A DNA stretch of 64,000 nt from an uncultured Thermoleophilia bacterium (GCA_963709635.1 CAVPXA010000025.1:26686-90685), one strand, 5' to 3'; positions 14,338-38,101 are shown, numbered from the stretch's first letter. Numbers and translations: made by a program. The notes: generated from the sequence alone by a model not told the origin.

Positions 14338-14346
14338 CCCGGGCAG

Positions 14347-15957
14347 ATGAAGAAGGCGGCGGAAGAGAAGGTCGCCGAGCTGGCGAAGCTGCGCCGCGAC
14401 GGCGGCGTGCTGCACGACTACCGCGCGCCGCGCTGGGACGAGCCCTTCATCATGGAGCAGGGCTCGCCGGGCGAGCGCGGCATCTGCGTGCCGCTCGCCG
14501 AGGACGCCGTCACGGCCGAGGTGGGCGCGGCGGCGGACTACATCCCCGAGGGGATGGCCCGCGCCGCCGCCCCCGAGTTGCCGGAGATGGCCCAGTACCA
14601 GGTCCTGCGCCACTACCTGCGGTACGCGCAGATGACGCTGGGCATGGACCTCGGCAGCGACATCAGCGAGGGCACCTGCACCATGAAGTACTCGCCCAAG
14701 ATGCACGAGGAGCTCATCCGCGGCCACAAGGCGGCGGACGTGCACCCGTGGCAGGACGAGGACACCCTGCAGGGCCTGCTCGAGATCGTCTACGACACCG
14801 GGCAGTACCTGAAGTCCATCAGCGGCATGGACGCCTTCACGCTGCAGCCGGGCGGCGGCTCGCACGCCGTGTACACCAACGCGTGCGTCATGCGCCGCTA
14901 CTTCGAGGCCAAGGGCGAGCTCGGCCAGCGCAACGAGATGATCACGACGATCTTCTCGCACCCGTGCGACGCGGCGACGCCCATGGTGGCCGGCTTCAAG
15001 GTCATCACCGTCATGCCCGACGAGAACGGCTACCCCGACCTCGAGGCGTTCCGCGCGGCCGTCAGCGAGAAGACCGTCGGCTGCATGATCACCAACCCCG
15101 AAGACACCGGCATCTACAACCCGCAGATCGACAAGTACGTCGAGATCCTGCACGACGCCGGCGCCCTGGCGTTCACCGACCAGGCCAACGCCAACGGCAT
15201 CCTGGGATTCGCCCGGGCCCGCGACGCCGGGTTCGACGCCTGCCACTTCAACCTGCACAAGACGTTCAGCAGCCCGCACGGCTGCGAGGGCCCGGCGACC
15301 GGCGCCTACATGTGCACCGACGAGCTGGCGCCGTACCTGCCGGTCCCGCTGGTGACCAAAGGACGGCGAGCAGGTACCACCTCGACTACGACCGGCCCGA
15401 GAGCATCGGCCGCGTGCGCGGGTTCCTTGGCAACTGGATGGGCGTCATCCGCGCCTACGCGTGGATCCGCACCATGGGTCCGGAGGGCCTCAAGGAGGTC
15501 GCCGAGATCTCAGTGCTCAACAACGCGTACCTCGACAACCTGCTCATGGCGATCCGGGGCGTCAGCCGGCCGTATGCCGAAGGCCACCGCCGGCTCGACC
15601 AGGTGCGCTACAGCCTGGAGAAGCTCAAGGAGGACACCGGCATCGGCACCGAGGCCGTGCGCGACCGCCAGGTCGACTTCGGCATCCAGAGCCACTGGAT
15701 GAGTCACCACCCCTGGGTGGTCCCCGAGCCGTTCACGCCGGAGCCCTGCGAGACCTACAGCAAGGCCGACCTCGACGAGTGGGCGGCGGTCATGAAGAAG
15801 GGCAGCGACGAGTCCTACGCCGACGCGCAGTTCGTGCTCGACTCGCCGCACGCGCAGCCGATCGACCAGATGCGGCGCACGCGAGGCCATGGAGGACCCG
15901 GACCAGTGGGCCTTCACGTGGCGCAAGTACAAGCGCAAGTTCAAGGGCAAGGTCTGA
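14347..15957 (+). CDS. gcvPB: glycine dehydrogenase (decarboxylating) subunit 2 (two frame changes)
   Basis: GcvPB blocks (GSCTMKYSPK, HLNLHKTFSSPHGC) are present. The frame shifts near 15365 (LAPYLPVPLVTK then YHLDYDRPESIGRV). The C-terminus MEDPDQWAFTWRKYKRKFKGKV is in a third frame ending at TGA 15955-15957. Confidence 0.85.
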
Positions 15958-15987
15958 TGCTCTCGAGCTGACGCTCGCGAGCGCACG

Positions 15988-16068
15988 GGGCGGGGCGGGG
16001 CCGCAGAGCGGCTCCGCCCCGCCGCCGCTCGGGTATCATGGCCGGGCCGGCCGCTCCCGCGGCCGGCC
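15988..16068 (+). terminator. two consecutive GC-rich hairpins downstream of gcvPB (putative U-tract-less terminator)
   Basis: The first is ggcggggcgg with a 15-nt loop and ccgccccgcc. The second is a perfect 10-bp stem ggccggccgc, loop tccc, gcggccggcc at 16045-16068. Confidence 0.35.
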
Positions 16069-16096
16069 TTCGCTCACTCGACGAAAGGCGGACGAG

Positions 16097-16336
16097 GTGC
16101 CTCAGCAACCTCCCAGGCGTGGGATCCGCGCGGCGGAGGCGCTCGGCCTCACCGTCTTCGCGCTCACGGTGGTGTTCCTCGCCGCGCTGCTCGTCACGTG
16201 GATCCTCAAGGTGCCGGACGAGTTCTCGCAGGTAGCGCTCGTGTTCTCGACCGCCTGCGGGGTGGCCGCGGCCTTCGGCATGCTGTGGGACGCCATCGAC
16301 CTGTGGTTGCGCGGCCGCCAGCATGCCGCCGCGTGA
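16097..16336 (+). CDS. small hypothetical membrane protein
   Basis: GTG start in the ORF 15461..16336 frame. The hydrophobic segment reads LGLTVFALTVVFLAALLVTWIL. Confidence 0.3.
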   Translation: MPQQPPRRGIRAAEALGLTVFALTVVFLAALLVTWILKVPDEFSQVALVFSTACGVAAAFGMLWDAIDLWLRGRQHAAA

Positions 16337-16353
16337 CGGTCAAGAACGTCCGC

Positions 16354-16635
16354 ATGATGGTGTGGGTCGGCGTGCTCGGGGCGCTGGCGACGAGCATCCT
16401 CGGCCAGAACACGATGATCGTGCTGTACCTCGCACCGGCGTTGGTCACCTACCTGTTCATCTCCCGGCGCGTTCCTGCGGGTTCCGCGGCGCGGGCCGCC
16501 GCGAGGTCGGGCGGCGGCGGGAGTGCGGGCGGTGCGCGGTCCGGTGGCGAGCACCACGTCCAAGGGACGCCAGCGCCGCGGCGGCAGAAAGCGCCGCTAG
16601 AGACGCAGCGCGAGGTGCGACCGGTGATGGGGTGA
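16354..16635 (+). CDS. small hypothetical membrane protein
   Basis: Starts MMVWVGVLGALATSILGQNTMIVLYLAPALVTYLFI. It ends 3 nt after the GTG of the next gene. Confidence 0.25.
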   Translation: MMVWVGVLGALATSILGQNTMIVLYLAPALVTYLFISRRVPAGSAARAAARSGGGGSAGGARSGGEHHVQGTPAPRRQKAPLETQREVRPVMG

Positions 16636-17831
16636 ACGTGAAGAGGCTCGGCGTCATCGTCAATCCGTGTGCCGGAGTCGGCGGCCGCGTGGGCCTCAAG
16701 GGCAGCGACGGCGCCGAGGTGCTGCGCGCCGCGCTCGAGCTGGGCGCCGTGCGCGACGCTCCGCGGCGCGCGCGGCTGGCGCTCGAGCGCGTCGCGCGCG
16801 TCCGCGACCACGTGGAGGTCGTCACGTGGCCGGGCGAGATGGGCGAGGACGAGGCGCGCGCGGCCGGCTTCGAACCGCGCGTGATCGGCTCGCTCGAGGG
16901 GCGCCGGTCGTACGTGCTCTGCGAGCTGGACCGGACGGGCGCGCAGCCCCACATCGCCTGCGGCGACTTCGTGCTCACCACGCCGGACGACACGCGACAG
17001 GCCGCGCGCGGCCTGCTCGCCGCCGGCGTGGACCTCATCCTCTTCGCCGGCGGCGACGGCACCGCGCGCAACATCTGCAGCGCGGTCGGGGACGCGGTGC
17101 CGGTCATCGGCGTTCCCGCCGGCGTCAAGATCCACTCGGCGGTGTACGCCACCACGCCGGCCGCCGCCGGTGACCTGTGCTGCCTCTATCTGCACGAGCG
17201 GCCCGCGGCCGTGCAGCTTCGCGAGGGCGAGGTCATGGACATCGACGAGGAGGCGTTCCGGGACAACCGCGTCTCGGCGCACCTCTACGGCTACATGACC
17301 GTCCCGTACTCGCGCGGCCTCACGCAGAGCGCCAAGGCCGGCGGGGTGGCCGGCGAGGAGCGGGCCCTCAACGACATCGCCACGGAGGTCGTCGCCGGGA
17401 TGAAGCCCGGCGCGCTCTACATCCTCGGTCCCGGCACGACCACCCGCACGGTCATGGAGCGCCTCGGGCTGCCCAAGACGCTCCTCGGCGTGGACGCCGT
17501 CCGCGACGGCGAGCTCCTCGGCGCGGACCTCACCGAGGGGGACCTGATCGCGCTGGCCGCCGAGGCGCCGGAGAGCTTCATCGTGGTCACCGTCATCGGC
17601 GGCCAGGGGCACATCTTCGGGCGCGGCAACCAGCAGATCAGCCCGGCCGTCATCCGGGCGGTGGGGCCGGGCAACGTCATCGTGATCGCCACCCAGACCA
17701 AGCTGCTCAGCCTGGAGGGCCGGCCGCTGCTCGTCGACACCGGCGATCCCGCGCTCGACGATCAGCTCTCCGGCTACGTCAAGGTCGTCACGGCGCTGGG
17801 CGAGCGGACGATGTACAAGGTCGGCGCCTGA
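16632..17831 (+). CDS. ATP-NAD kinase family protein (PF01513-type, predicted NAD/polyphosphate kinase)
   Basis: GTG at 16632 gives VNVKRLGVIVNPCAG. The GGDGT motif is present (ILFAGGDGTARN). Confidence 0.75.
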   Translation: MNVKRLGVIVNPCAGVGGRVGLKGSDGAEVLRAALELGAVRDAPRRARLALERVARVRDHVEVVTWPGEMGEDEARAAGFEPRVIGSLEGRRSYVLCELDRTGAQPHIACGDFVLTTPDDTRQAARGLLAAGVDLILFAGGDGTARNICSAVGDAVPVIGVPAGVKIHSAVYATTPAAAGDLCCLYLHERPAAVQLREGEVMDIDEEAFRDNRVSAHLYGYMTVPYSRGLTQSAKAGGVAGEERALNDIATEVVAGMKPGALYILGPGTTTRTVMERLGLPKTLLGVDAVRDGELLGADLTEGDLIALAAEAPESFIVVTVIGGQGHIFGRGNQQISPAVIRAVGPGNVIVIATQTKLLSLEGRPLLVDTGDPALDDQLSGYVKVVTALGERTMYKVGA

Positions 17832-18103
17832 CCCGACTTCCGCGCCGTCCGGGCAGCCTGCCGCCGCCGCGCCGTGCCGGCGCCGCGTCGCCTGCGGCTG
17901 ACCACGCTCTTCCCGTCCGTCTAGACGTCCGTTCCATGTGCGGCGGCGGACGCCGGGCCGACGCAGTGCTCAGGCGGCGGTGGCGGCCGCCCTTGCCTAC
18001 GCCCTGCGGCCGCCGCCGTCCGCCTCCTCTTCTTCCCGTCTTCTCGCTTGCTCTCCTGCTCGGAGACCGCTCGCACAAACCTCCGCGATTGCTAACTTGA
18101 TGC

Positions 18104-18131
18104 TTGCAAACGCGTCAGAAAGTTATACAAT
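18104..18131 (+). promoter_or_regulatory. putative sigma-A promoter of the saccharopine-dehydrogenase/SBP operon
   Basis: TTGCAA, a 16-nt spacer, then TACAAT lie in the only AT-rich stretch of the region. A structured leader of about 105 nt follows, with a hairpin at 18151-18183. Confidence 0.4.
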
Positions 18132-18237
18132 CCGCTTCATTGTACGCTCTGGAGGGGTCTACGCATGCGTTCGAGACGCCTCCGCCCAAGAGGCGCCCGC
18201 CCGGGGCGCTCACGTCTCGTCAAGGAGAAGGAACGTC

Positions 18238-19535
18238 ATGAAGGCTCTCGTCGTCGGTACCGGTGGTGTCGGTCAGTCCATCGCCGCGATCGCCAAGCTT
18301 CGCGACCCCAATGGTGAGTGGCTCGAGAAGATGGTGATGGCGGACTACGACGGCAAGCGCGCCGCGGACTTCGTCGCCACCCTCAAGGATCCGCGCTTCG
18401 TCGCCGAGCAGGTCGACGCGAGCGACGTCGACGCCGTGGCCGCGCTGGCCGAGAAGCACGGCGCCGACATCCTGATGAACCTCTGCGCCCCCAACTTCAA
18501 CCCGCCGCTCCTGCAGGCTGCGCTCAAGGCCAAGGTCCACTACCTCGACACCGCCATGACGCTGAGCGAGTGGCACCCCACCGACCCGTTCCACAAGACC
18601 GGCAAGAAGCTCGGCGACGACGAGTACGCGCTCAGCCCCGAGTTCGAGGCGATCGGCAAGTACGCGCTCGCCGGCTTCGGCGTCGAGCCCGGCATGGCCG
18701 ACTTCTTCGCGCGCTACGCCGCCGACCACCTCTTCGACGAGATCGACTACATCGGCATCCGCGACGGCAGCAACCTCGAGATCCCCGGCGCGACCGGCAT
18801 CAGCTTCGGCTTCAGCGTCTGGACCACCATCGAGGAGTGCAACAACCCGGCGATCGTGTTCGAGAACGGCGACTTCCACACCGTCGAGCCGTTCGCCGAG
18901 CTCGAGAAGTTCTGGCTGCCCGAGGGCATCGGCGAGGTCGAGGTCGGCCACGTCGAGCACGAGGAGGTCGTCCAGATCGGCCACAACGCCGACAAGCTCA
19001 AGGGCGTCAAGAAGGCCGAGTTCAAGTACGCCCTCGGCGACGAGTTCATGGCCGCCATGGACGTCTTCCGCTCGATCAACATCGACAAGGCCGAGAAGAT
19101 CAAGGTCGGCGACGTCATGGTCGCGCCGCGCGACGTCATCGCCGCCGCCGCTCCGGACCCGAACGAGATCGGCAAGCAGTACGTGGGCAAGACGGCCGCC
19201 GGCACCTACGTGATCGGCAAGAAGGACGGCCTGGAGCGCAAGGTGTACCTGTATCAGGTCGCCGACAACAAGGAGTGCGTGGACAAGTACGGCACCCAGG
19301 TCGTCGTCGCGCAGACCGCCTTCACGCCGGTCATCGCCATCGAGCTCCTCGCCAAGGGCAGCCTCGGCAGCAAGCCGGGCGACCCCAAGAGCGGCGTCCA
19401 CAACCCCGAGGCGTTCAACGCCGACGACTACGTGGCGCTCATGCCGGCCTCGAGTTCCCCGGCGGCCTGCTCGAGGTCGAGTCCGAGTACAAGATCGCCA
19501 AGGATCGTCAGGCCCTGCTCGACCTGGCGAAGTAG
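18238..19535 (+). CDS. saccharopine dehydrogenase family NAD(P)-binding protein (one frameshift near 19447)
   Basis: RBS AAGGAGAAGG. N-terminus MKALVVGTGGVGQSIA. The frame shifts at a CC run (LMPA|LEFPGGLLEVE) and ends at 19535. Confidence 0.8.
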
Positions 19536-19721
19536 GAGTCCTTCACAGGCCTTCGGCACGTGGCCGGCCGCCCCTCCCCGGGCGGCCGGCCATTTCCGTC
19601 TCCGGACCGGCTCCTTCTGCGGCGCTCGACCTTGCTCACGCAGGGAAGCGGCGCGATACTCGGATGACGAGATAGAGGCGGCGGCCGCGGCCGCCGTGGG
19701 GGACCGACGAGGGGGGACTCG

Positions 19722-21577
19722 ATGGCACGCCCCATCCACCACACCGAAGGCCGGCGACGGTCGTCTCACCTGCTCCTGCTGTTGCTGGTGGCGGGTGTCC
19801 TCATCGCCGGGCTGGCCTGGGGGCTCGGGTCCGCGCTGGCGGCCGACCCGAGCGCCTCCCCGGACGCCGGCAAGGTCGTGCTCCGCGTCGGCTGGACCAA
19901 CGACCCCGACAACCTCAACCCGTTCATCGGGGCCGAGACCTCGTCCTACGAGATCTGGCTGCTCAACTACGACTTCCTCACCGGGTACTCGCCCGACCTG
20001 CAGCCGACGCCGGACCTCGCGACCTCCTGGGAGACGTCGCCGGACGGCAAGACCTGGACGTTCCACCTGCGCGAGGGCGTCACGTGGCAGGACGGCGAAC
20101 CCCTTACGGCCGACGACGTCGCCTTCACCTACAACTACATCGTGGACAACGAGATGGGCGCGTTCTCGAGCCTCACGACCTTCATCGAGGAGGCCGTGGC
20201 GGTGGACGACCTCACCGTCGAGATCCGCTGCAGCAAGCCCAAGGCCAACATGATCCGCACCTGGATCCCGATCCTGCCGGAGCACGTCTGGAGCAAGGTG
20301 AGCCCCAAGGCCGCCGGCGCCTCGTACCAGAACAAGCCGCCGATCGTCGGCACCGGTCCCTTCCAGACGGTGGAGGTCAAGAAGGGCGACTACGTGCGCA
20401 TGGTCGCCAGTCCCTCCTACTGGGGCGAGCAGAAGCCGGCGGTGGACGAGATCCTCTTCATCACCTACCAGAACTCCGACACGATGACCCAGGACCTCCT
20501 GGCGGGGAACCTCGACGCCGCGTGGGGCATCCCGTCGGCCCAGTTCCCCAAGCTCGAGACCACGGAGGGGATCGAGGCTATCTCCTACAACCTGCTCACC
20601 TGGACCTACCTCTCCTTCAACTGCTACGAGGGGACCAGCCGCGGCAACCCGGTGCTGCGCGACGTGGCGTTCCGCCGGGCGCTCAACTGGGCCGTCGACC
20701 GGCAGAAGATCGTCGACCTCGCCTGGGCGGGTCGCGGCAAGCCGGGCACCACCATCATGACTCCCGACTCGTGGGTCGACCCGGACTACCACTGGGAGCC
20801 TCCGGCCGAGGCGCTGTTCGGCTTCGACCCGGCCAAGGCCGGCGCAGCTGCTCGACGAGGCCGGCTACAAGGACTCCGACGGGGACGGCCTGCGCGAGGA
20901 CAAGGCGGGCAAGCCCATCGAGCTGCGGCTGTGGGCCCGCACCGAGTCGCCCGAGAGCCAGAAGACCGGCAGCCTCATCACCGGGTGGTTCCGCGACCTC
21001 GGCCTCAAGATCGACTACCAGGTGATGGACGACGGCATCTACTACGACAGCATCTGGGCCTACGAGGGCGACGAGTACAGCCCGGACTTCGACATGTACC
21101 TCTGGAACTACGACGGGTACGCCGACCCGGGCGACTCGCTGGCGAGCTTCATCACCGCGCAGATCGAGAACTGGAACGAGCCGTGCTGGTCCGACGCCGA
21201 GTTCGACGCGGCGGTGGACGAGGCCAACACCACGCTGGACCCGGAGCAGCGCAAGGAGCTCATCTGGAGGGCGCAGCAGATCTTCTACGAGGAGTCGCCG
21301 CAGATCGTCACCGACTACCCGGAGAAGCTCGAGGCCGTCAACACCGCCAAGTGGGACGGCTGGACGCGGATGTACGGCGGCGAGGGGGCTGCGTTCTACA
21401 CGAGCTACATCCGCGACAGCTACCTGAACCTGAGGCCCAAGGCCGCCGTGGAGGATGCATCCGGCGGCGGCGCGAGCGGGACCGTGATCGGTCGTGGTCG
21501 TGGTGGTCGCCGTGGCCGTGCTCGCGGTGGTGGCCGTCCTGGTGCTGCGGCGCCGGAGGGCGACGGAAGAGGAGTGA
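19722..21577 (+). CDS. ABC transporter substrate-binding protein, family 5 (peptide/nickel/opine type); two frame changes
   Basis: Signal peptide, then the family-5 SBP core. Frame 0 changes to frame 1 near 20838 (DPAKAAQLLDEAGY restored by removing one G). Frame 1 changes to frame 2 near 21500, revealing a C-terminal hydrophobic anchor VVVVVAVAVLAVVAVLVLRRRR. Confidence 0.8.
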
Positions 21578-21581
21578 CGGC

Positions 21582-23848
<2,267 letters not shown>

Positions 23849-23933
23849 TCCCTCAGGGGCCTCGTCGGCAACGTCGGCGACCGTTCGGCCTCGAAGTCGC
23901 GGCCGGGCTCCCCGCGTGGCAAGATGCGTCTAC

Positions 23934-24031
23934 GGAGCGGCTCGTGGTCCGGTGACCACCGCGGTCTTCAAAACCGTCTGCGGGGCGATGATCCTGTCCT
24001 GGGTGGGTTCGACTCCCATGTCGCTCCGCCA
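23934..24031 (+). tRNA. selC: tRNA-Sec (anticodon TCA)
   Basis: 8-bp acceptor stem (GGAGCGGC/GTCGCTCC with one G-U). 6-bp D-stem GTGGTC/GACCAC with a 4-nt loop. Anticodon loop CTTCAAA has TCA at 23968-23970. Long variable arm. 5-bp T-stem GTGGG/CCCAT with loop TTCGACT. Discriminator G and encoded CCA at 24029-24031. The 8/5 architecture and the GGTTCGACTCC box match bacterial selC. Confidence 0.85.
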
Positions 24032-24306
24032 CTGTTTTGGGGGTGGGGTTAGGGGGTGCGCTGGAACGGTTGCGCGGGCTGGGAAGTAGATCTGGAGCTG
24101 CGTGCAGGAGAAGCCGGTGCGTGATGTCACGTTGTGCGATTGCACGGGCGGGAGACAGGCTGCCGATCTTCGGTTTGAGAGAAGCGACGGCGGGATGGCT
24201 GGTGGCGGTTGTGAGCACGACGTTGACTGCCGCTGATGGCGGCCGGGACGTGCAGACCGCCTGAGTGGCCGTCCAACTCGTCACGCTGGCCGGTGCGCCC
24301 GAAACG

Positions 24307-25971
24307 TCACCGCGCCTTGGGCGTCGCCGAAGTCGGCCCGGCGATGGTCACAAGGCTCTCGATCGTGCCCGCGGTGGGAGTCGAGAGGCGATCGAGGGAT
24401 GGACATCGATGCGAACGTCGCGGCCACCGAGTGCGGGGCGATGACTTGACGAAGGTCCAGGAGGCTGCGGCGTCTGAGCGACGCCGTCGGCCGTGAGCGA
24501 GGCGATGTGATAGCCGGGGTGAGGGGTGATGGCGTAGGTCGGGCTGGAGCCGTACATGACGGGACCGCTGCCGGGAGTGATGGTGCCATTGGCGCCTGCT
24601 GTGACCGTGATGGCGACAGGTGGCGGGGAGGCTGGGACGAAGATGTACACCGAGCCCTGATCGACATTGGCGCCGACATCGTCGAAGTAGGCTCCCGCGA
24701 CGGCCGTCTCGCCGGAGATGGGCGACCGAGTAGCCGAAGCAGTCTTCGGCGGCGCCGTCGCGGCGATCAACTTCGCCTGCTGGCTCCAGGACGGTGCCGC
24801 TGCGCGCGAAGACGTAGGCCGAGCCTTGCTCGACGTTGCCGCCGACATCGTCGAAGACGGCGCCGACGAGGGCGGTGTCGCCGGAGATCGCGACAGAGCA
24901 TGCCGAACTGGTCGTAGGCGGCGCCGTCGGCGGCGGTAAGCTTCGCCTGCTGGCTCCAGGTGGTGCCGCTGCGCGTGAAGACGTAGGCGGAGCCTTGGTC
25001 TGCGTTGGTGCCGACGTCGTCGCCGAGCGGCCCCCACGAGGGCGGTGTCGCCGGAGAGGGCGACCGAGCATGCCGAAGTAGTCGCAGGCGGCGCCGTCGG
25101 CGGCGGTGAGCTTGGCCTGCTGGCTCCAGGTGGTGCCGCTGCGCGTGAAGACGTAGGCCGAGCCCTGGTCGGCGTTGGCGCCGACGCGTCGTGCTGGTAG
25201 GCCCCCACCACGGCGGTGTCGCCGGAGAGTGCGACCGAGTAGCCGAAGTAGTCGCTGGCGGCGCCGTCGGCGGCGGTGAGCTTGGCCTGCTGGCTCCAGG
25301 TGGTGCCGCTGCGCATGAAGACGTAGGCGGAGCCTTGGTCTGCGTTGGCGCCGACGTCGTGTCCATGAGGCGCCCACCACGGCGGTGTCGCCGGAGAGGG
25401 CGACCGAGTAGCCGAAGTAGTCGTCGGCGGCGCCGTCGGCGGCGGTGAGCTTCGGCCTGCTGGCTCCAGGTGGTGCCGCTGCGCACGAAGACGTAGGCGG
25501 AGCCCTGGTTGGCGTTGGCTGCCGACGTCGTCGCGATAGGCGCCCACCACGGCGGTGTCGCCGGCGATGGCGACCGAGCAGCCGAAGTAGTCGTCGTCGG
25601 CGCCGTCGGTGGCGGTCAGCTTGCGCCTGCTGGCGTCCAGGTGGTGCCGCTGCGCGTGAAGACGTAGGCCGAGCCTTGGTCGGTAGTTGGCGCAGATGTC
25701 GGCGCCGGCGGCGCCCACCACGGCGGTGTCGCCGGAGATGGCGACCGAGCAGCCGAAGTAGTCGTGCGCGGCGCCGTCGCCGGCGGTCAGCTGGGCCTGC
25801 TGCACGGCCAGCAGGGCCGCAGCGACTGCATCGGATCGAATGGCCGGTCGTGGGAGCGGCTTGTGCCGCACCGGCCGCGACAAGGGCGCCAACGCCGAGA
25901 CAGAGGACGAGCGTCAGAAGCGACAGGGCGTGAAGCGCCGGTCGGAACCACGTGGTGGATCGAGAATCCAT
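24307..25971 (-). CDS. secreted FG-GAP (integrin-alpha-like) tandem-repeat protein with a C-terminal InlB B-repeat-like domain (frame scrambled across repeats)
   Basis: ATG at 25971 begins a signal peptide ([38 protein letters not shown]). Roughly 7 copies of a ~60-aa unit ([28 protein letters not shown]...[17 protein letters not shown]) alternate between frames. The tail reads [45 protein letters not shown]. Confidence 0.6.
24700..25790. repeat. tandem array of ~180-bp near-identical units (FG-GAP repeat coding region)
   Basis: The unit ...gtagtcg.cggcgccgtcggcggcggtgagctt.gcctgctggctccaggtggtgccgctgcgc.tgaagacgtaggc.gagcc.tggt... recurs about 6-7 times with few substitutions. Confidence 0.7.
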
Positions 25972-26120
25972 GACCCCCCCTCGGTGGACGCCTCCAGCAT
26001 ACACCCCCGCAAACGGTCCGGGAGCGTGCACGGACGGACGCGGGCAGGGAGGGCCTGAGAATCAAAGGCCTCCCTTTGCAGGGGAATCCAAGGTTGCTGA
26101 GGACGGCTGCGGGAGCCTGA

Positions 26121-26202
26121 GGAGCCGGTCCGCGGTCTTCAAAAACGTCTGCGGGGCAGTGATCCTGTCCTGGGTGGGTTCGACTCCCATGTCGCTCCGC
26201 CA
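26121..26202 (+). pseudogene. degenerate second copy of tRNA-Sec lacking the D-stem (pseudo-selC; candidate attR-like repeat)
   Basis: Positions 26132-26202 match selC 23961-24031 (71 nt) with 3 substitutions. The 5' end keeps GGAGC, but both D-stem strands are precisely absent. A single-substitution A-A mismatch in the anticodon stem (aacgt vs accgt). Confidence 0.6.
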
Positions 26203-26416
26203 TCTTCTTCTCTCCCGGACCCTGGACTCCCCTCCTGGAGCTCCCGCTTGGGCTGCCACCGTACGCGGCGCGGCTCCGGGACGGGTCTGAGCCGTGCGCC
26301 GGAGCCGGTCACTGTGAAGGTACCCCCGCGCCGGTGAGTCCAGTCGTCTGACGGTCGCCGGCTGGGCCGTCGCCCCGGGGGCGCCCAGCGGCCTCCGCGG
26401 GCGGTAGGATTGCCCC

Positions 26417-27649
26417 GTGGAGGAGCGCCCCACCATCTACGAGTCGGCGGCGCGGCGCCGGTCGCGCACGCGCCGCGTGCTGGCCGTCGCGGGCGCCGCC
26501 GCGGCGCTGGTCGCCGCACTCGGAGTGGCCGCCGCGTGGACGCTGCGCGACGGCTCGGCGGGCGGCGCGGCCGCCGCTCCGGCGTCGTCTCCGGCCACCC
26601 CGGCGCCGTCGTCCAGTGCGCCGGCCGTGCGGCTCGCTCGCGTCGCCGCCATGGAGGTCCACCGGGGCGAGACGGCGACGTTCAGGTACCGGCTGGCCGA
26701 AGGGCCGCCGGGGACGCCGGTCACGCTCGTCGTGACGAGCGCCGCCGGCGAGCAGGTCAAGGCCCGGCGGCTCGAGGACGCTGAGCCCGGGCGCTGGGTC
26801 TCGGCGGCCGTGCCGCTCGACCTGGAGCCCGGCCGCTACACGTACACACTTCGCCCGGGAGACGGCGCCGCCTCGGAGGGGGCCGTCACGGGTGCGGCTT
26901 CGGCCGAGCTCCACGTGCTCAAGCCGCTGCCGCCGGCGTTTCCCGGCAAGAAGGCCGTCGCCGCCGCCGCCGAGTGGATCGCCGGCCGCGACGGAGAGGT
27001 GGCCTTCGCCGTCGTCGACAGCAACGGCCGGGACGCCGGCGGCTACCGCGAGCACGAGCTCTTCCAGCTCGCGAGTCTCTCCAAGGCGATCCTGCTCGCG
27101 GCCTCACTGCGCGACGACCCCAGTCCGGACGCCGCGAGCGAGGCGACACTGCGCGCGATGATCACCGAGTCGGACAACGGCGCCGCCTACACCGTCTTCG
27201 GGCGCGTCGGCGCCAAGGGCATGAAGGCCGTCGCCAAGGCGGCCGGCATGGCCGACTACGAGCAGGGCGCCGGCTGGGTGGACACGCGCGCCTCCGCCGC
27301 GGACCAGGCGCGCCTCTTCTCCCGCTACGAGTCGCTGGTGCCGGCCGAGGCCCGCGCCCTCGCACGCGAGCTGCTCTCCGGCATCACGCCGATGCAGCGC
27401 TGGGGCATCCCCGCGGCGGCCGGCCCCGAGGGCTGGCGGACGTACTTCAAGGGCGGCTGGCTCGGCATGGACAACAGGCTCATGGTCCAGGCCGCCCGGC
27501 TCGAGAAGGGCAAGAAGTCGTGGGCGCTGGCGGTGATGAGCGACGAGAACCCCACGCGCTCCACCGGCTGGGACACGCAGAAGGGCGTCACCGGGCTGTT
27601 GCTCGGGAAGGAGCCGTCGCCGGCGTACCTGGCCGTCGTGCTCGAGTAG
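26417..27649 (+). CDS. membrane-anchored class-A beta-lactamase-like serine hydrolase
   Basis: GTG start, an N-terminal TM segment, then SLSK (S-x-x-K), SDN and KGG-like boxes typical of class A beta-lactamase/PBP-like folds. Confidence 0.7.
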   Translation: MEERPTIYESAARRRSRTRRVLAVAGAAAALVAALGVAAAWTLRDGSAGGAAAAPASSPATPAPSSSAPAVRLARVAAMEVHRGETATFRYRLAEGPPGTPVTLVVTSAAGEQVKARRLEDAEPGRWVSAAVPLDLEPGRYTYTLRPGDGAASEGAVTGAASAELHVLKPLPPAFPGKKAVAAAAEWIAGRDGEVAFAVVDSNGRDAGGYREHELFQLASLSKAILLAASLRDDPSPDAASEATLRAMITESDNGAAYTVFGRVGAKGMKAVAKAAGMADYEQGAGWVDTRASAADQARLFSRYESLVPAEARALARELLSGITPMQRWGIPAAAGPEGWRTYFKGGWLGMDNRLMVQAARLEKGKKSWALAVMSDENPTRSTGWDTQKGVTGLLLGKEPSPAYLAVVLE

Positions 27650-27667
27650 GCGTGCGCCCCCCCCGCG

Positions 27668-28168
27668 TCAGTCCTCCGGGTAGCCGATCTCCTCGACGGT
27701 GAGGTCGATGTTGCCGGCCGGCCGGCGCCAGAGGACCTTCTTGCCGACCCGCGCGTCGACGAGGGCCTCGGCGAGCGGCGAGACGTAGCTGATCTTGCCC
27801 TGCCTCAGGTCGGCCTCGTCCTCGCCCACGATGGTGAAGGTCTGGAGCTTGCCGCCGTCCTGGCTCACGGTGACGGCGGCTCCGAACGCCACCTTGCGGC
27901 GCGGCTGGCGGCCCAGGTCCACGAGGATCGCGCTCTCGAGCCGCGCCGTGAAGTACCGCAGGTCGCGGTCGATGTAGACGAGCGCGCCTTCGGGGTCGTC
28001 GTCCTGCTCGAGCAGTTCGAGGCGCCGGGTCTCGAGCGCGCCGACCTTCTCCTCCAGCTGCGCGAGGCCGGCCGGTGTGACGTAGTTGGGGTGCTCGCTG
28101 ACCTGCCGCTCGGGCAGTTGCTCCGCGGGCGCTCCCTCGTCAGGCTCTTTGACGAACGCTCTGCTCAT
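27668..28168 (-). CDS. GreA/GreB-family transcription elongation factor
   Basis: Intact 166-aa ORF with a GreA-like coiled-coil N-domain and C-terminal FKBP-like domain (IVGEDEADLRQGKISYVSPLAEAL). Confidence 0.8.
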   Translation of the reverse strand: MSRAFVKEPDEGAPAEQLPERQVSEHPNYVTPAGLAQLEEKVGALETRRLELLEQDDDPEGALVYIDRDLRYFTARLESAILVDLGRQPRRKVAFGAAVTVSQDGGKLQTFTIVGEDEADLRQGKISYVSPLAEALVDARVGKKVLWRRPAGNIDLTVEEIGYPED

Positions 28169-28308
28169 GGGGTACTCCGGTCGGGAGAGAGGTGGTCACT
28201 CCGTAGTGTTCCCTTCGACACACGTGTCCGCACTCCCTCACGATAGGGTACACAGGAGACGACACGTGGCCGGAGCTCCGAATCCGGCCCTCGCGACGGA
28301 GGGTGACC

Positions 28309-28845
28309 ATGCTGGACCAGCGGATGCAGGACGCGTTCAACAGTCAGATCAACTGGGAGCTCTACTCGGGCTATCTCTATCTCTCCATGGCGAGTCAGTT
28401 CGCCGAGATGGGCATGTCGGGCGGCCAGAACTGGATGACGGTGCAGTACCAGGAGGAGCTCGCTCACGCGCGCATCATGTTCAGCTACGTGCTCACGCGC
28501 GGCGGCCGCGTGCTGCTCGAGGCCATCGAGAAGCCGGAGACGGAGTGGGAGGGCGGGCTCGCCATGTTCGAGGAGGCGCTCGCCCACGAGGAGGGCGTGA
28601 CGGCGCGCATCCACGAGATGGCCTCGCTGGCGCTCGAGCTCAAGGACCACGCCACCTACAACTTCCTCCAGTGGTTCATCGCCGAGCAGGTCGAGGAGGA
28701 AGAGAGCGCGATGGACATGGTGAGCAAGTTCAAGATGGCCGGCGAGCACCCGGCCGGGCTCTACCAGCTCGACAAGGAGCTGGCGACGCGCGCGTACAAC
28801 GTGCCGTCGCCGCTGGCCGCCCTGGACGCGGCCGCCGGCGCCTGA
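28309..28845 (+). CDS. non-heme ferritin
   Basis: GGAGG lies 7 nt before the ATG at 28309. Ferritin-like diiron motifs are present (NWELYSGYLYLSMASQF, EEELAHA, EQVEEE). Confidence 0.9.
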   Translation: MLDQRMQDAFNSQINWELYSGYLYLSMASQFAEMGMSGGQNWMTVQYQEELAHARIMFSYVLTRGGRVLLEAIEKPETEWEGGLAMFEEALAHEEGVTARIHEMASLALELKDHATYNFLQWFIAEQVEEEESAMDMVSKFKMAGEHPAGLYQLDKELATRAYNVPSPLAALDAAAGA

Positions 28846-28885
28846 GGCGGTCCGGCGCCCGAGGTCGGCCGGCGTCTGACGGCGC

Positions 28886-29422
28886 TCAGAGCGGCCGCAC
28901 GAGCAGCAGGCAGGGGTTCTCGGGCCCCCACACCTGCGGCAGCACCTCGAGCGGGCGGAAGCCCAGGCTGAGGTAGAACGCTCGCGTCGCGGCGTACCCC
29001 GGGTCGGGGTCGCTCGGCGCGAGCGTCTTCACGTGCAGCAGGCTGTAGCCCTCGGCGCGGGCGTACGCCGCCGCGCGCTCCACGAGCGCGCGGCCGGCCC
29101 CGCGCCGGTGCCAGCGAGGGCAGGACGCCCATGACGTGGAGTTCCAGGGCGTCCTCGCTGGTCTCCCGCAGCGTCAGGAAGCCGATCACCTGGTCGGGCC
29201 GGAACTCGCGAGGTCGCCGCCGCACGCCGGCCGGTCGACGAGGACGACGAACGTGTCGAGCTCGCCGGCCGCGCGCACGTAGTCCTGCAGCGCGGCCTCG
29301 ATGCCGAACCAGCCGGGGAGGGCCCGGAGGATGCGCTCGGCCGCCTCGGCCTGCCCGAGCAGCGGGCCGCGCACCGAGAAGTGGACCTCGTCCGTGCGCC
29401 GGTCTGTGTGCTCCGCGCTCAC
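28886..29422 (-). CDS. GNAT-family N-acetyltransferase (two frame changes)
   Basis: N-terminal part in ORF 29186..29422 and C-terminal part in ORF 28886..29083 (HVKTLAPSDPDPGYAATRAFYLSLGF), joined through a third frame. Confidence 0.55.
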
Positions 29423-29446
29423 GCCCGGCTCCAGGACACCGCGATC

Positions 29447-30204
29447 TCAGGTCACGTCGCGGCGCAGCGAGATGAAGACCGCCGCGACGCTCACGATGGC
29501 GATGTAGGCGATGCTGACGAGGAACGCCTCCGGACGCGTGAGCGCGCTCTCCGTCAGGGCCTCCATGCCGTCGCCGGACATCTGCGCCGCGCTCACCTGG
29601 TTGAAGACCACGAACGGCAGCCAGTTGCCGACGGCCGGCTTGAGCACGTAGATGATGTTCTCCACGAACAGCGCCCAGATGAGCGTGCCGGCGACGGTGA
29701 TGATCTGGGCGCGGATGAGCGCGCCCAGCGCGACGCCGAACGTCGTGACCAGCCCGGCGACGACGAGCTGCCGCGCGTAGTCGCCCAGCGTGGAGCCGCC
29801 GGTGGCGTCGATGTCCACGCCACGTATCGCGCCTCCGATGAGGATCGCGACGTACACGAGCAGCATGGCCACCAGCATCGTCACCATGCCGACCAGCAGG
29901 TAGACGACCAGCTTGACGACCATCACCTGCCAGCGGCGCGGCGTGACGAGGTACGAGTAGGTGATGGTGCCGTGCCGGTACTCGTTGGTCATGCCCAGGA
30001 TGCCGAACACGAGGAGCACCAGCGGCACGAGGGCGCTGGCGGTGGTGAGGAACTGGGTGATGCCCTCTTCGCCGAGCCAGTCCTTGGGCACCAGCGCCAG
30101 GATGAGGATGAGCGGCACGAGCGTCACCACGAGGATGACGATGAAGAGGCCGAGGGCCGTGCGCGTGCTGCGCAGCTTGAGCAGCTCGGCCCGGGCCACG
30201 GCGA

Positions 30205-30208
<4 letters not shown>
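29447..30208 (-). CDS. ABC-2 type transporter permease
   Basis: Intact 253-aa ORF with 6 predicted TM segments. Its 5' end overlaps the ATPase gene 3' end (4-nt overlap). Confidence 0.85.
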
Positions 30209-31104
<896 letters not shown>

Positions 31105-31203
31105 GCTCCCTCCAGGTCGCGCGGTCGTTGGGCGCGTCCGCGCCCGCCCGAGTCTACACGAGGAGTGGGCCGGCCCGCCGCCGGGTCGGCCCGGTGAAAG
31201 GCG

Positions 31204-32246
31204 TCAGTGGCCCAGCGAGTGGGAGTAGAGCTCCCAGCGCCCGCTGCGGTCGTCCGCCCAGTACACGCTGCCGGCGACGATGACCGGACTCACCTGACGG
31301 CCGCCGGCCTCGCTGACCGGGGTCGCCTTGCCGAGCTCGAAGTCGTAGGACCAGACCTGGGGACCGGTGGCCTTGCGGTCCACGACCCACACGGCAGCGT
31401 GGCGGCTCAGCGAGAGGGACGACCCCGTGCCCCGCAGACGGCAGAGCACCTTGGAGCGGCTGGACCGGCGGTTCCACGAGACGATCGCGGTGGAGTGCCG
31501 GCCCGGTCGAGGCGGCCCACAGGACGCGGTCGCGGTCCATCGCCACGGCCGTGCCTCTGGCGGCCAGCCGGTAGCGGGTCGCGCTGCGGAAGGAGCCGGC
31601 CCAGACCTCTCCGGTGGAGCCCTTCCCGGAGATCCAGACCGCCCAGGGACCCCAGGCGGCGAAGCTCCTCACCCGACCACCGGTCTCAAGTGCGTACTCC
31701 TCGTCGGTGAGCGCGTTCACGCCGCGGATGACGTCCTTGCCCCAGCCGGCGCCGCCCGGATCGACCCAGAACACGACGTCGCCCACGACGCGCGGGGCGC
31801 GGCCCGCCTTGGTGAGACGCCAGCGGTGCGCGATCTCGAGGTTGAACGCCTGGATGCCGGCCGGGCCGTCACCACGCTTGCCCGCCCAGGACTCCCACGC
31901 GATGAGGTGGCCGCCGGCCGCCGGGAACCCGCCGGACTTGCCGGCCGCGTCGCGCCCGAGCAGCCGTTCGGTGTCGCCGCTCGGCACGTCGTAGTACCAG
32001 ATGCCGGCCACGTCGGCGCTCCGGTCGCGCTGCTCCCAGTAGATCCTGGTGTCGCCGGCCGTCAGGCCGAGCGGCTCCTCGGGCCATGTCGAGCGGGGCC
32101 ACGGCGGCGGACGAGGTGGTGGCGGAGCCGGTCGAGTCGGCCGAGGCTTGCGGCGGGCCGGGCAGGAGCCCCGTGGTCCACGCCAGATACGCCGGCACGG
32201 CAGCCATGGCGAGGAACGCGACCACTACCAGCAGTCTGGATCTCAC
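31204..32246 (-). CDS. secreted TolB-like beta-propeller repeat protein (two frame changes)
   Basis: GTG at 32246 follows GGGAGGTG. Signal/TM segment. Repeated W-rich propeller blades read across three frames (IWYYDVPSG, VVFWVD, VYWADDRSGRWELYS). Confidence 0.6.
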
Positions 32247-32514
32247 GGCTCCACCTCCCGGCCGCCGGACGGCGGCCCGAACGCCCCTGTGTCCGCTCGC
32301 TGCCGCGAGGGACGCGGCTTGTGTTCCCGGTGCCGGGCGTCCAAAACGTCGCCCGCCGTTCATCGGGGGACGAGCGGCAGGCGGAGACGCGCTCCTCACG
32401 CCGAGGCTGGGGACGCGGAAGTCTCTGAGGGGCACCAGAAGCCCAGAGGAGCTTACAAGGTGAGCCGTGACGGAGGCGACAGCTGCTGCCGGCCTGACGC
32501 GCCCGGCGGCGCGG

Positions 32515-33906
32515 TCAGCCGGCGACAGCTCGTCGAGCCGGCGCAGCGTGGCGTCGTCGAGCGTGAAGGAGGGGCCCGCGGCCTGGATCTCGGCCACGCG
32601 GGCCCGCACGCGCTCGAGGAGCGTGGAGGCGCCGGCCGCCGACCAGCGCTCGTGCGTGCTCTGGTCGATCAGCGACGCGCGCCAGAAGTCGCGGAAGCGC
32701 CGGCGCGTCATCTTGGTGCCGAGATGGTTGCCGCCCGGGCCCACCGCCTCGACCTCGACCAGCGCCAGGGCCTCCTCGTCGACGGGCAGCTCGCCGAGCA
32801 GGGCCCGGGCGTAGCCCGATCACTTCGTCGCCGAGCACCAGGGCCTCGAGCGCGCTCTGCAGTCCGCTCTCGAGGTAGCCGACGTCGTGGAGCAGCGTCG
32901 CGCGCGAGAGGCCGCCCATGACGGTCGAGATGCCCAGCTCCAGCGCCCACTGCTCGTCCAGCTTCTTGCTGTCCGAGTGGCCGGCGTAGTGCCAGCTGGG
33001 CAGGCCGTACCAGCGGATCACGTCGAGCTGCGCCTGGTTGCCGAGGAACACGCCCGGGGAGTTGTAGACCTCTACGGCGTGCTGCATGTTCATCACGCCG
33101 GTGCCGACGCCCATCACGAACGGCGCGCCGGGCCTGGCGATCTGGTGGACGACGAGGCCGGCGAGCACCTCGGCGTTGGCCACCGCCACACAGGCGGTGA
33201 GGGACGCCGGGCCCTGCGCGCCGGCCGAGACCGACGGCGCCAGCACCAGCGGCACCCCGAGCTCGGCGCAGGCGAGCGCCTTGGTGCAGCAGACGTCGTC
33301 GAGCATGAGCGGCGGCGAGGTCATGGCGAGGCAGGCGAAGCTGTCCGCCTCGCCGGCCGCCGCCGCCATCGCGTGCATGGTGTACAGCGTCTCGCCGCCG
33401 AACGGGCTCGAGACGACGATGGGCTTGCGCGTGCCGCGCAGCATGGCGGCGAACTGCACGACGTCGACCACCTCGTTGGCGACGTCCTCCGGCAGCGCCA
33501 TGCTCATCGCGAAGTCGATGTTGGGCAGCGCCTCGACGAAGCGTGCGGCGGCCTCGACGTCGGCGAGCGTGGCGCGCCGGCGCTCGCCGGTGACGGGGTC
33601 GGCGACGTACAGGCAGTCGGGCCCGCTGCCGGTGTGGCCGGCGCCGTCGCGCAGCTCCAGCGGCGCCGTCTCGCCGCCGCGCGGGCGCAGCGTCCACGAG
33701 CGCGGCGCGCTCTCGAGCGCGCGCTCGACCAGCTCGGCGGGCATGCGTACGCGCGTGCCCTCGACGGCCGCGCCGGCGGCGGCGCAGCGCTCGCGGGCGC
33801 CGGCGTCCTTCATCTCGACGCCGGTGCGCGCGAGCAGGGTCAGCGAAGCCTCGTGGACGCGGCGGCAGGCATCGTCGTCCCAGATCCTGAGTGTGGCTCG
33901 GTTCAC
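32515..33906 (-). CDS. MttB-superfamily (trimethylamine/glycine-betaine type) methyltransferase, non-pyrrolysine member (frameshifted near the 3' end)
   Basis: GTG at 33906. MttB-family N-terminus (LRIWDDDACRRVHEASLTLLARTGVE). The C-terminal block PGGNHLGTKMTRRRFRDFWR is in a second frame (ORF 31869..32744). The end is set at the main-frame stop 32515. Confidence 0.7.
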   Translation of the reverse strand: MNRATLRIWDDDACRRVHEASLTLLARTGVEMKDAGARERCAAAGAAVEGTRVRMPAELVERALESAPRSWTLRPRGGETAPLELRDGAGHTGSGPDCLYVADPVTGERRRATLADVEAAARFVEALPNIDFAMSMALPEDVANEVVDVVQFAAMLRGTRKPIVVSSPFGGETLYTMHAMAAAAGEADSFACLAMTSPPLMLDDVCCTKALACAELGVPLVLAPSVSAGAQGPASLTACVAVANAEVLAGLVVHQIARPGAPFVMGVGTGVMNMQHAVEVYNSPGVFLGNQAQLDVIRWYGLPSWHYAGHSDSKKLDEQWALELGISTVMGGLSRATLLHDVGYLESGLQSALEALVLGDEVIGLRPGPARRAARRRGGPGAGRGRGGGPGRQPSRHQDDAPALPRLLARVADRPEHARALVGGRRLHAPRARAGPRGRDPGRGPLLHARRRHAAPARRAVAG

Positions 33907-34032
33907 GGTGGTCCCCTTCGGGTGGTGGTCCTTCGGCGGTGACGCGGTGGGTGGCCGCCGGCTCGGCGCGCTCTCGCGCGCGCCTCCGGCGGCTCGGCGG
34001 CTACGGGCGCGGAGCGCCGGCGGCCGCCCGCG

Positions 34033-34254
34033 TCAGCAGGGCCCGCGTTCGCTGAAGACCTTGAACCAGAGGCCGCCGAAGTAGCGGCCGGCGTGCGTGT
34101 GGCGGAGGAGTTCGCCCTCGGTACCGGAGCGTCCGCCGCGGGCTCCCCCGGCGGTCTGCCGGCGAACCGTCTCTCTGGCGAAGATGTGGCGCACGCGCTG
34201 CTCCTCCGGACCGTGTGCGCGGCCGCGCACCCCGGCCAGTACATACCGCCTCAC
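34033..34254 (-). CDS. hypothetical 73-aa protein translationally coupled to the kdpD N-domain gene
   Basis: Its GTG start overlaps the kdpD-N TGA stop as GTGA. There is no recognisable domain. Confidence 0.25.
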   Translation of the reverse strand: MRRYVLAGVRGRAHGPEEQRVRHIFARETVRRQTAGGARGGRSGTEGELLRHTHAGRYFGGLWFKVFSERGPC

Positions 34255-35385
34255 GCGGGGCAGTCAAGCGAGACGGGGTCGGCGACCACGAGGACGTCGG
34301 CGCAATCGATCTCCCGGATGATGCGCGTGATCTGCGATCCGCGCAGGATCTCGTCGAGCCGGGACCTGCGCGACTGGCCGAGGACGATGAAGCTGGCGTG
34401 CCGCTCGCGGGCGAAGCGCAGGATCTCCTCACCCACCGAGTCGCCCTCGAGCTCGACGACCTCTCCTCCGAGCGAACGGCTCAGCGCGAAGAGGTCGTCC
34501 AGCTCGTGCCGGGCCGCGGCATCGAGGCGCTGCGTGCGCACGTGGAGGACCCAGAGGCGTCCCTGGAGTCGCCGCGCGAGGCGGTGCCCCCGGCGCACGA
34601 GCCTGACTGCGAGCGGCCCCGGGCGCACGCAGACGACCACGCGCTCTTCGGCGACCCACGGGTGCAGGGTGTCCTCGTCCGGGGCGATGCGCTCCAGGAA
34701 GTCGTCCACCTCCTCGGCGGTCTTGCGCAGGGCGAGCTCGCGGAGAGCGACGAGGTTCTCGCGCCGGAAGAAGTTGGCGAGCGCTCCCGGGACGGTGTCG
34801 AGGTCGTAGACCACGCCGCGGCGCAGGCGGTTGACCAATGCCGCCGTCGTGAGGTCGACGAGGACCACCTCGTCGGCCTGGTCGAGCACGGCGTCGGGGA
34901 GCGTCTCCTGCACGCGCACGCCGGTGATCTCGAACACCGTCTCGTTGAGGCTCTCGAGGTGCTGCACGTTGACGGTGGTGATCACGTTGATGCCGGCGGC
35001 CTGGATCTCCTCCACGCTCTGCCAGCGCTTCGCGTGGCGCGCGCCGGGGACGTTGGTGTGGGCCAGCTCGTCGACGAGCACCCACGCGGGGCGGCGCGCG
35101 ATCACCGCGTCGGTGTCGAGCTCGTCGAACTCCTTGCCGCGGTAGGCGAGGCGCTTGAGGGGGAGGCACTCGAGCCCCTCGACGAGCTCGGCGGTCTCCT
35201 TGCGGCCGTGCGTCTCCACGAAGCCGACGACGATGTCCTCCCCTCGCGAGACGCGACGATGGGCCTCGGCGAGCATACTGAAGGTCTTGCCCACGCCCGG
35301 GCGCGTAGCCGAGGAAGACCTTGAGCCGGCCGCGCTTGCGCAGCGTGCGCAGCGCGTAGCCCTCGTCGCCGGCCGGGGTCGCCAT
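34251..35385 (-). CDS. kdpD: stand-alone KdpD N-terminal sensor domain plus Usp domain (one frameshift near 35300)
   Basis: Starts MATPAGDEGYALRTLRKRGRLKVFLGYAPG and, after the shift, continues VGKTFSMLAEAHRRVSRGEDIVVGFVETHGR (KdpD P-loop N-domain), then a Usp-like domain. There is no kinase domain. Confidence 0.75.
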
Positions 35386-35395
35386 CGCCGTCCGC

Positions 35396-35991
35396 CTAGC
35401 GGCCGGCCGGCCGGGCCGCCGTGGACGCGTCGAGCGCCAGGTTGAGCAGCAGCACGTTGACGCGCGGCTCGCCGAGGAACCCCAGGGTCCGGCCCGTCGT
35501 GTGCTCGTCGATGAGGCGCAGCACGGCGTCCTCGCTCAGGCCTCGGGCCCGGGCCACGCGAGCGGCCTGGGCGCGGGCATTGGCGATGCTGATGTCGGGG
35601 TCGAGGCCGCTCGCCGAGGTGGTGACCATGTCGACCGGGACCGAGCCCGCGGTGAGACCGGGGTTCGCCGCGGCCAGCTCGTCCACGTCGGCGCTCACCC
35701 GGTCGAAGAGGGTCGCGTTCGTCGGGCCGAGGTTGGAGGCGGACGGACGCCATGGCGTCGTAGCCGCGCGCCGGCGGCCGAGGGCCGCGGCCAGAAGTAC
35801 GTGTCCTTCGAGAACGCCTGGGCGATCGAGGCCGAACCCACCAGGCGACCGTCGACCCGCACCAGGCTCCCGTCGGCCGCGCCGGGGAAGAGGACCTGCG
35901 CGGCGCCGGTGATCGCCAGCGGGTAGAGCAGCCCGAACAGCAGGGCGGTCACGAGGGTCATGCGCAAGGCGGTGGCCAGATGGCGTCGCAC
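35396..35991 (-). CDS. kdpC: potassium-transporting ATPase subunit C (frame changes near 35700-35760)
   Basis: N-terminal TM segment in ORF 35695..35991. C-terminal KdpC block ([18 protein letters not shown]) in ORF 35396..35698. Confidence 0.75.
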
Positions 35992-36000
35992 GGTCTCTCC

Positions 36001-38101
36001 TCAGCTCGCCAGGCCCAGCCCGACGAGGACCAGGTCGATGGCCTTGATGCCGACGAACGGGACGATGACGCCGCCGAGCCCGTAGACCAGCAGGTTGTAG
36101 CGCAGCAGGGCGGCGGCGGGGATGGCCCGGAACTTGACGCCGCGCAGGGCGAGCGGGATCAGCGCGACGATGATCAGCGCGTTGAAGATGACGGCCGAGA
36201 GGATGGCGCTGTCGGCCGAGTGCAGGCCCATCACGTTGAGCACCGCGAGCTCCGGGAACGAGACCATGAACATCGCCGGGATGATGGCGAAGTACTTGGC
36301 CACGTCGTTGGCGATGCTGAACGTGGTGAGTGCACCGCGGGTGATGAGCAGCTGCTTGCCGATCTCCACGATCTCGATGAGCTTGGTGGGGTTGGAGTCG
36401 AGGTCCACCATGTTGCCGGCCTCTTTGGCCGCCATGGTGCCGGTGTTCATGGCCACGCCGACGTCCGCCTGCGCGAGCGCCGGCGCGTCGTTGGTGCCGT
36501 CGCCGGTCATGGCGACCAGCTTGCCCTGCGCCTGCTCGGCCTTGATGAGCTCCATCTTGGCCTCGGGCGTGGCCTCCGCCAGGAAGTCGTCCACGCCCGC
36601 CTCCTCGGCGATCACGGCGGCGGTCAGCGGGTTGTCGCCGGTGATCATCACCGTGCGGATGCCCATGGCGCGCATCTGGTCGAAGCGCTCGCGGATGCCG
36701 CCCTTGACGACGTCCTTGAGGTGGATCACGCCGAGAGCCCGGTCGTCGCGGGCGACGGCTAGTGGGGTGCCGCCCTGGCCGGAGACGTGCGCCAGCGTGG
36801 CCTCGAGTTCGGGCGGCACCTCACCCCCTTGTCGCCGGATCCAGGACGTCACGGCGTCGCCGGCGCCCTTGCGCATGCTGTGCCCGTCGAGGTCGATGCC
36901 GCTCATGCGCGTCTGCGCGGTGAACTCCACGAACGTCGCCTGATCGGGGTCGATGTGCCGGCCGCGCAGGCCGAACTCCTTGGCGAGGACGACGACGGAG
37001 CGGCCCTCGGGCGTCTCGTCGGCGAGCGAGGCCAGCTGCGCGGCGTCGGCGAGCTCCTCGACGGTCACGCCGGGCATCGGGATGAACTCCGACGCCTGCC
37101 GGTTGCCCAGCGTGATGGTCCCGGTCTTGTCGAGCAGCAGCGTGTCCACGTCGCCGGCCGCCTCCACGGCGCGGCCGGACATGGCGAGCACGTTGTGCCG
37201 CACCAGGCGGTCCATGCCGGCGATGCCGATGGCCGCGAGCAGGCCGCCGATGGTGGTCGGGATGAGACAGACGAGCAGCGCGATCAGCACGGTGACCGAG
37301 ACGGCGGCGTCGCTGTAGAGCGCGAAGGGCTGCAGCGTCACGACCACGATCAGGAAGATGATCGTCAGCCCGGCCAGCAGGATGTTGAGCGCGATCTCGT
37401 TGGGCGTCTTCTGCCGCTCCGCGCCCTCGACGAGAGCGATCATGCGGTCGAGGAAGGTGTGGCCCGGGTCGGAGGTGATGCGCACGACGATCTCGTCGGA
37501 GAGCACGCGCGTGCCGCCGGTGACCGCGCTGCGGTCGCCGCCGCTCTCACGGATGACCGGCGCCGACTCGCCGGTGATCGCCGACTCGTCCACGGAGGCG
37601 ATGCCCTCGACGACGTCGCCGTCGCCGGGGATGGTCTCGCCGGCGGACACGACGACCACGTCGCCCTTGCGCAGCGCGCTCGCGGCGACCTGGGCGACGT
37701 CGCCGTCCACACGCAGGTTGGCGAGCGTCTCCGTCCTGGTCTTGCGCAGCGTGTCGGCCTGGGCCTTGCCGCGTCCCTCCGCCATGGACGTCGGCGAAGT
37801 TGGCGAAGAGGACGGTGAACCACAGCCAGCCGCCGACCATGCCGGTGAAGGCCAGGTCCGAGCTCCCGCCGACGAGAGCGGCGACGAAGGCGATCGTCGT
37901 GATCACGCTGCCGACCTCGACGACGAACATGACCGGATTGCGCGCCATCTGGCGGGGGTCGAGCTTGGCGAACGAGCTGACCACCGCCGGCCAGACGACC
38001 CCGCGCAGGGAGGCTGCGCGGCGCGCGGGGCCGGGCGGCGCCGGCGAAGGCTCCGGGAGGACCTCGAGGACCTCTTCGGCGGGTGGGGCGACGACGGTCA
38101 C
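36001..38101 (-). CDS. kdpB: potassium-transporting ATPase subunit B (P-type ATPase; one frameshift near 37790)
   Basis: The GTG at 38101 overlaps the kdpA stop as GTGA. P-type motifs present ([40 protein letters not shown]). Confidence 0.85.

Follow-up and report, generated by a model that had tools for sequence, protein, structure and literature searches.

In a 64,000-nucleotide stretch of DNA from an uncultured Thermoleophilia bacterium (hereafter the window), the DNA inserted at the tRNA-Sec gene selC is, judging from sequence comparisons, the decayed remnant of an integrative element specific to tRNA-Sec; it has no integrase, and its sole cargo is a frame-broken gene for a secreted FG-GAP_2/InlB-B-repeat protein (Table 1). 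The sequence-only reading had proposed an old integrase-less island remnant at selC, and this proposal is supported by an empty site in a relative, by marker bases within the tRNA and by related elements that bear integrases.

Table 1. Features of the selC locus, in window coordinates
Feature	Position	Strand	Evidence
tRNA-Sec (selC), predicted functional; attL	23934-24031	+	ARAGORN, Rfam RF01852, cloverleaf fold, marker bases GA
Left copy of 73-nt direct repeat	23959-24031	+	repeat search (family D7)
Inserted DNA, 2,098 bp	24032-26129	.	blastn of seven relatives against the window
Insert left end, no recognisable gene or domain	24032-24306	.	Pfam, tblastn, alignment of tRNA-downstream sequences
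Cargo gene: signal peptide, ~7 FG-GAP_2, InlB B-repeat (Flg_new_2)	24307-25971	-	three-frame translation, Pfam
Tandem array encoding FG-GAP blades	24639-25802	-	TRF; unit alignment
Element P arm	26075-26125	+	homology to L055 arm; holds TTTGCAGG
Displaced native 3' tRNA-Sec fragment; attR; predicted non-functional	26130-26202	+	clade AG kept, L001 flank, Rfam 33.5

The empty site

The comparison with insert-lacking relatives suggested in the sequence-only reading yielded an empty site in L001 (95% identity), where the upstream GGDEF gene, encoding a diguanylate cyclase, is followed by a single tRNA-Sec and then by a serine-hydrolase gene. L001 aligns by blastn to window positions 14345-24032 and 26130-37671, and since both alignments share 74 nt of L001 (9715-9788), the limits of the insert are exact, comprising 24033-26129 plus the duplicated tRNA segment. 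The insert is also absent from six further genomes or contigs (L002, L003, L014, L017, L020 and L057); all seven island-free relatives have selC between the GGDEF gene and the serine-hydrolase gene, so this order does not stem from the island. GC content is 0.66-0.73 in the insert against 0.70-0.78 in the flanks.

A chimeric tRNA-Sec and its displaced fragment

ARAGORN and Rfam agree on a canonical full-length tRNA-Sec with a TCA anticodon (23968-23970), scoring 68.9 bits with RF01852 (gathering score 47) against 69.4 for the native L001 gene, and its minimum-free-energy fold is a cloverleaf (8-bp acceptor, 6-bp D, 5-bp anticodon, 7-bp variable and 5-bp T stems). These results bear out the bacterial cloverleaf and UCA anticodon described earlier, and on their basis selC is predicted to be functional.

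The part of selC running from the anticodon stem's 5' strand through the CCA recurs as a direct repeat of 96% identity; the three substitutions reported earlier were recovered, while the repeat is two nucleotides longer than the 71 nt first given. One substitution (C23974 versus A26145) breaks an anticodon-stem pair in the second copy, and the other two (GA23987-8 versus AG26158-9) fall in the variable-arm loop. As also described earlier, the outer flanks of the copies are unrelated to each other and the second copy has no D arm; its RF01852 score lies under the gathering score and folding gave no cloverleaf, which suggests that it is non-functional. A second 'tRNA-SeC' called by ARAGORN at 26101-26198 is a forced fit. 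Downstream of this copy, the DNA continues the L001 empty-site sequence.

In this Thermoleophilia clade, the variable positions of all ~60 native tRNA-Sec genes read C...AG, whereas in the window selC reads C...GA and the fragment, retaining the clade-wide AG, reads A...AG. The GA of selC occurs nowhere else among about 65 tRNA-Sec sequences of the clade, and a 41-mer containing it had no match in JGI metagenomes. Judged by these bases, this is the attL/attR pattern expected when a foreign attP and the native attB recombine in one crossover, and selC is a chimera: its 5' part is native, and the inserted element contributed the 3' part, from 23987 at the latest.

Arms, integrase and cargo

The right end of the insert is homologous to the arm sequence TTTGCAGG ... 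GGCTGCGGGAGCC of related contigs, its P arm matching the one upstream of the displaced tRNA-Sec fragment of L055 at equal distance from the fragment (local alignment score 35; shuffles 15.3 +/- 2.7, with 1 of 500 reaching 35). TTTGCAGG, at 26075-26082, may be an arm-type site for integrase binding; it occurs twice in the 64 kb (0.3 expected), lies 5-15 nt past the tRNA end in L019, L039, L047, L051 and L065, and is found upstream of the tRNA fragments in L048 and L055. The 5' GGAGC thought to have been kept in the second copy more likely comes from the element itself, as part of its conserved arm GGCTGCGGGAGCCYGMGGAG, also present in L055, than from the acceptor stem as a vestige. At the left end, intact relatives carry a P' arm (TTTGCAGG) along with the integrase gene's 3' end; at this position in the window, only 'ctgttttggggg' loosely resembles 'ctgcattttgcaggg', and Pfam found no domain there.

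In related contigs, tyrosine integrases directly adjoin tRNA-Sec and the displaced fragments begin at the anticodon loop. The window element differs in being integrase-less, as previously noticed: Pfam and tblastn revealed no integrase or recognisable fragment of one in the window (best E 0.18 with the L051 and L039 integrases as queries).

The description of the only gene in the insert as encoding a signal-peptide FG-GAP/B-repeat protein was also upheld, Pfam showing about 7 FG-GAP_2 units (PF14312, E = 3e-62) and an InlB B-repeat (PF18998, E = 1.2e-7). The gene starts at an ATG at 25971 and its 3' end is uncertain; the array comprises 6.9 units of about 170-171 nt (TRF period 170, 86% matches). 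In three-frame translation the reading frame changes at least 15 times within 1.4 kb, a density about 17-fold that of the local background, where there are 10 breaks per 15.9 kb.

Origin of the insert

An unusual tRNA-duplicating event, the alternative raised in the sequence-only reading, is not needed; the marker bases, together with the related integrase-bearing elements, support integrase-mediated insertion. A foreign element would have entered selC of this uncultured soil actinobacterium via an integrase, the usual mechanism of mobile elements, a single attP x attB crossover yielding attL in selC and attR in the displaced fragment. The integrase would have been lost after insertion, leaving the broken surface-protein gene as cargo. 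A genomic-island scar of this kind would be ordinary and is well documented.

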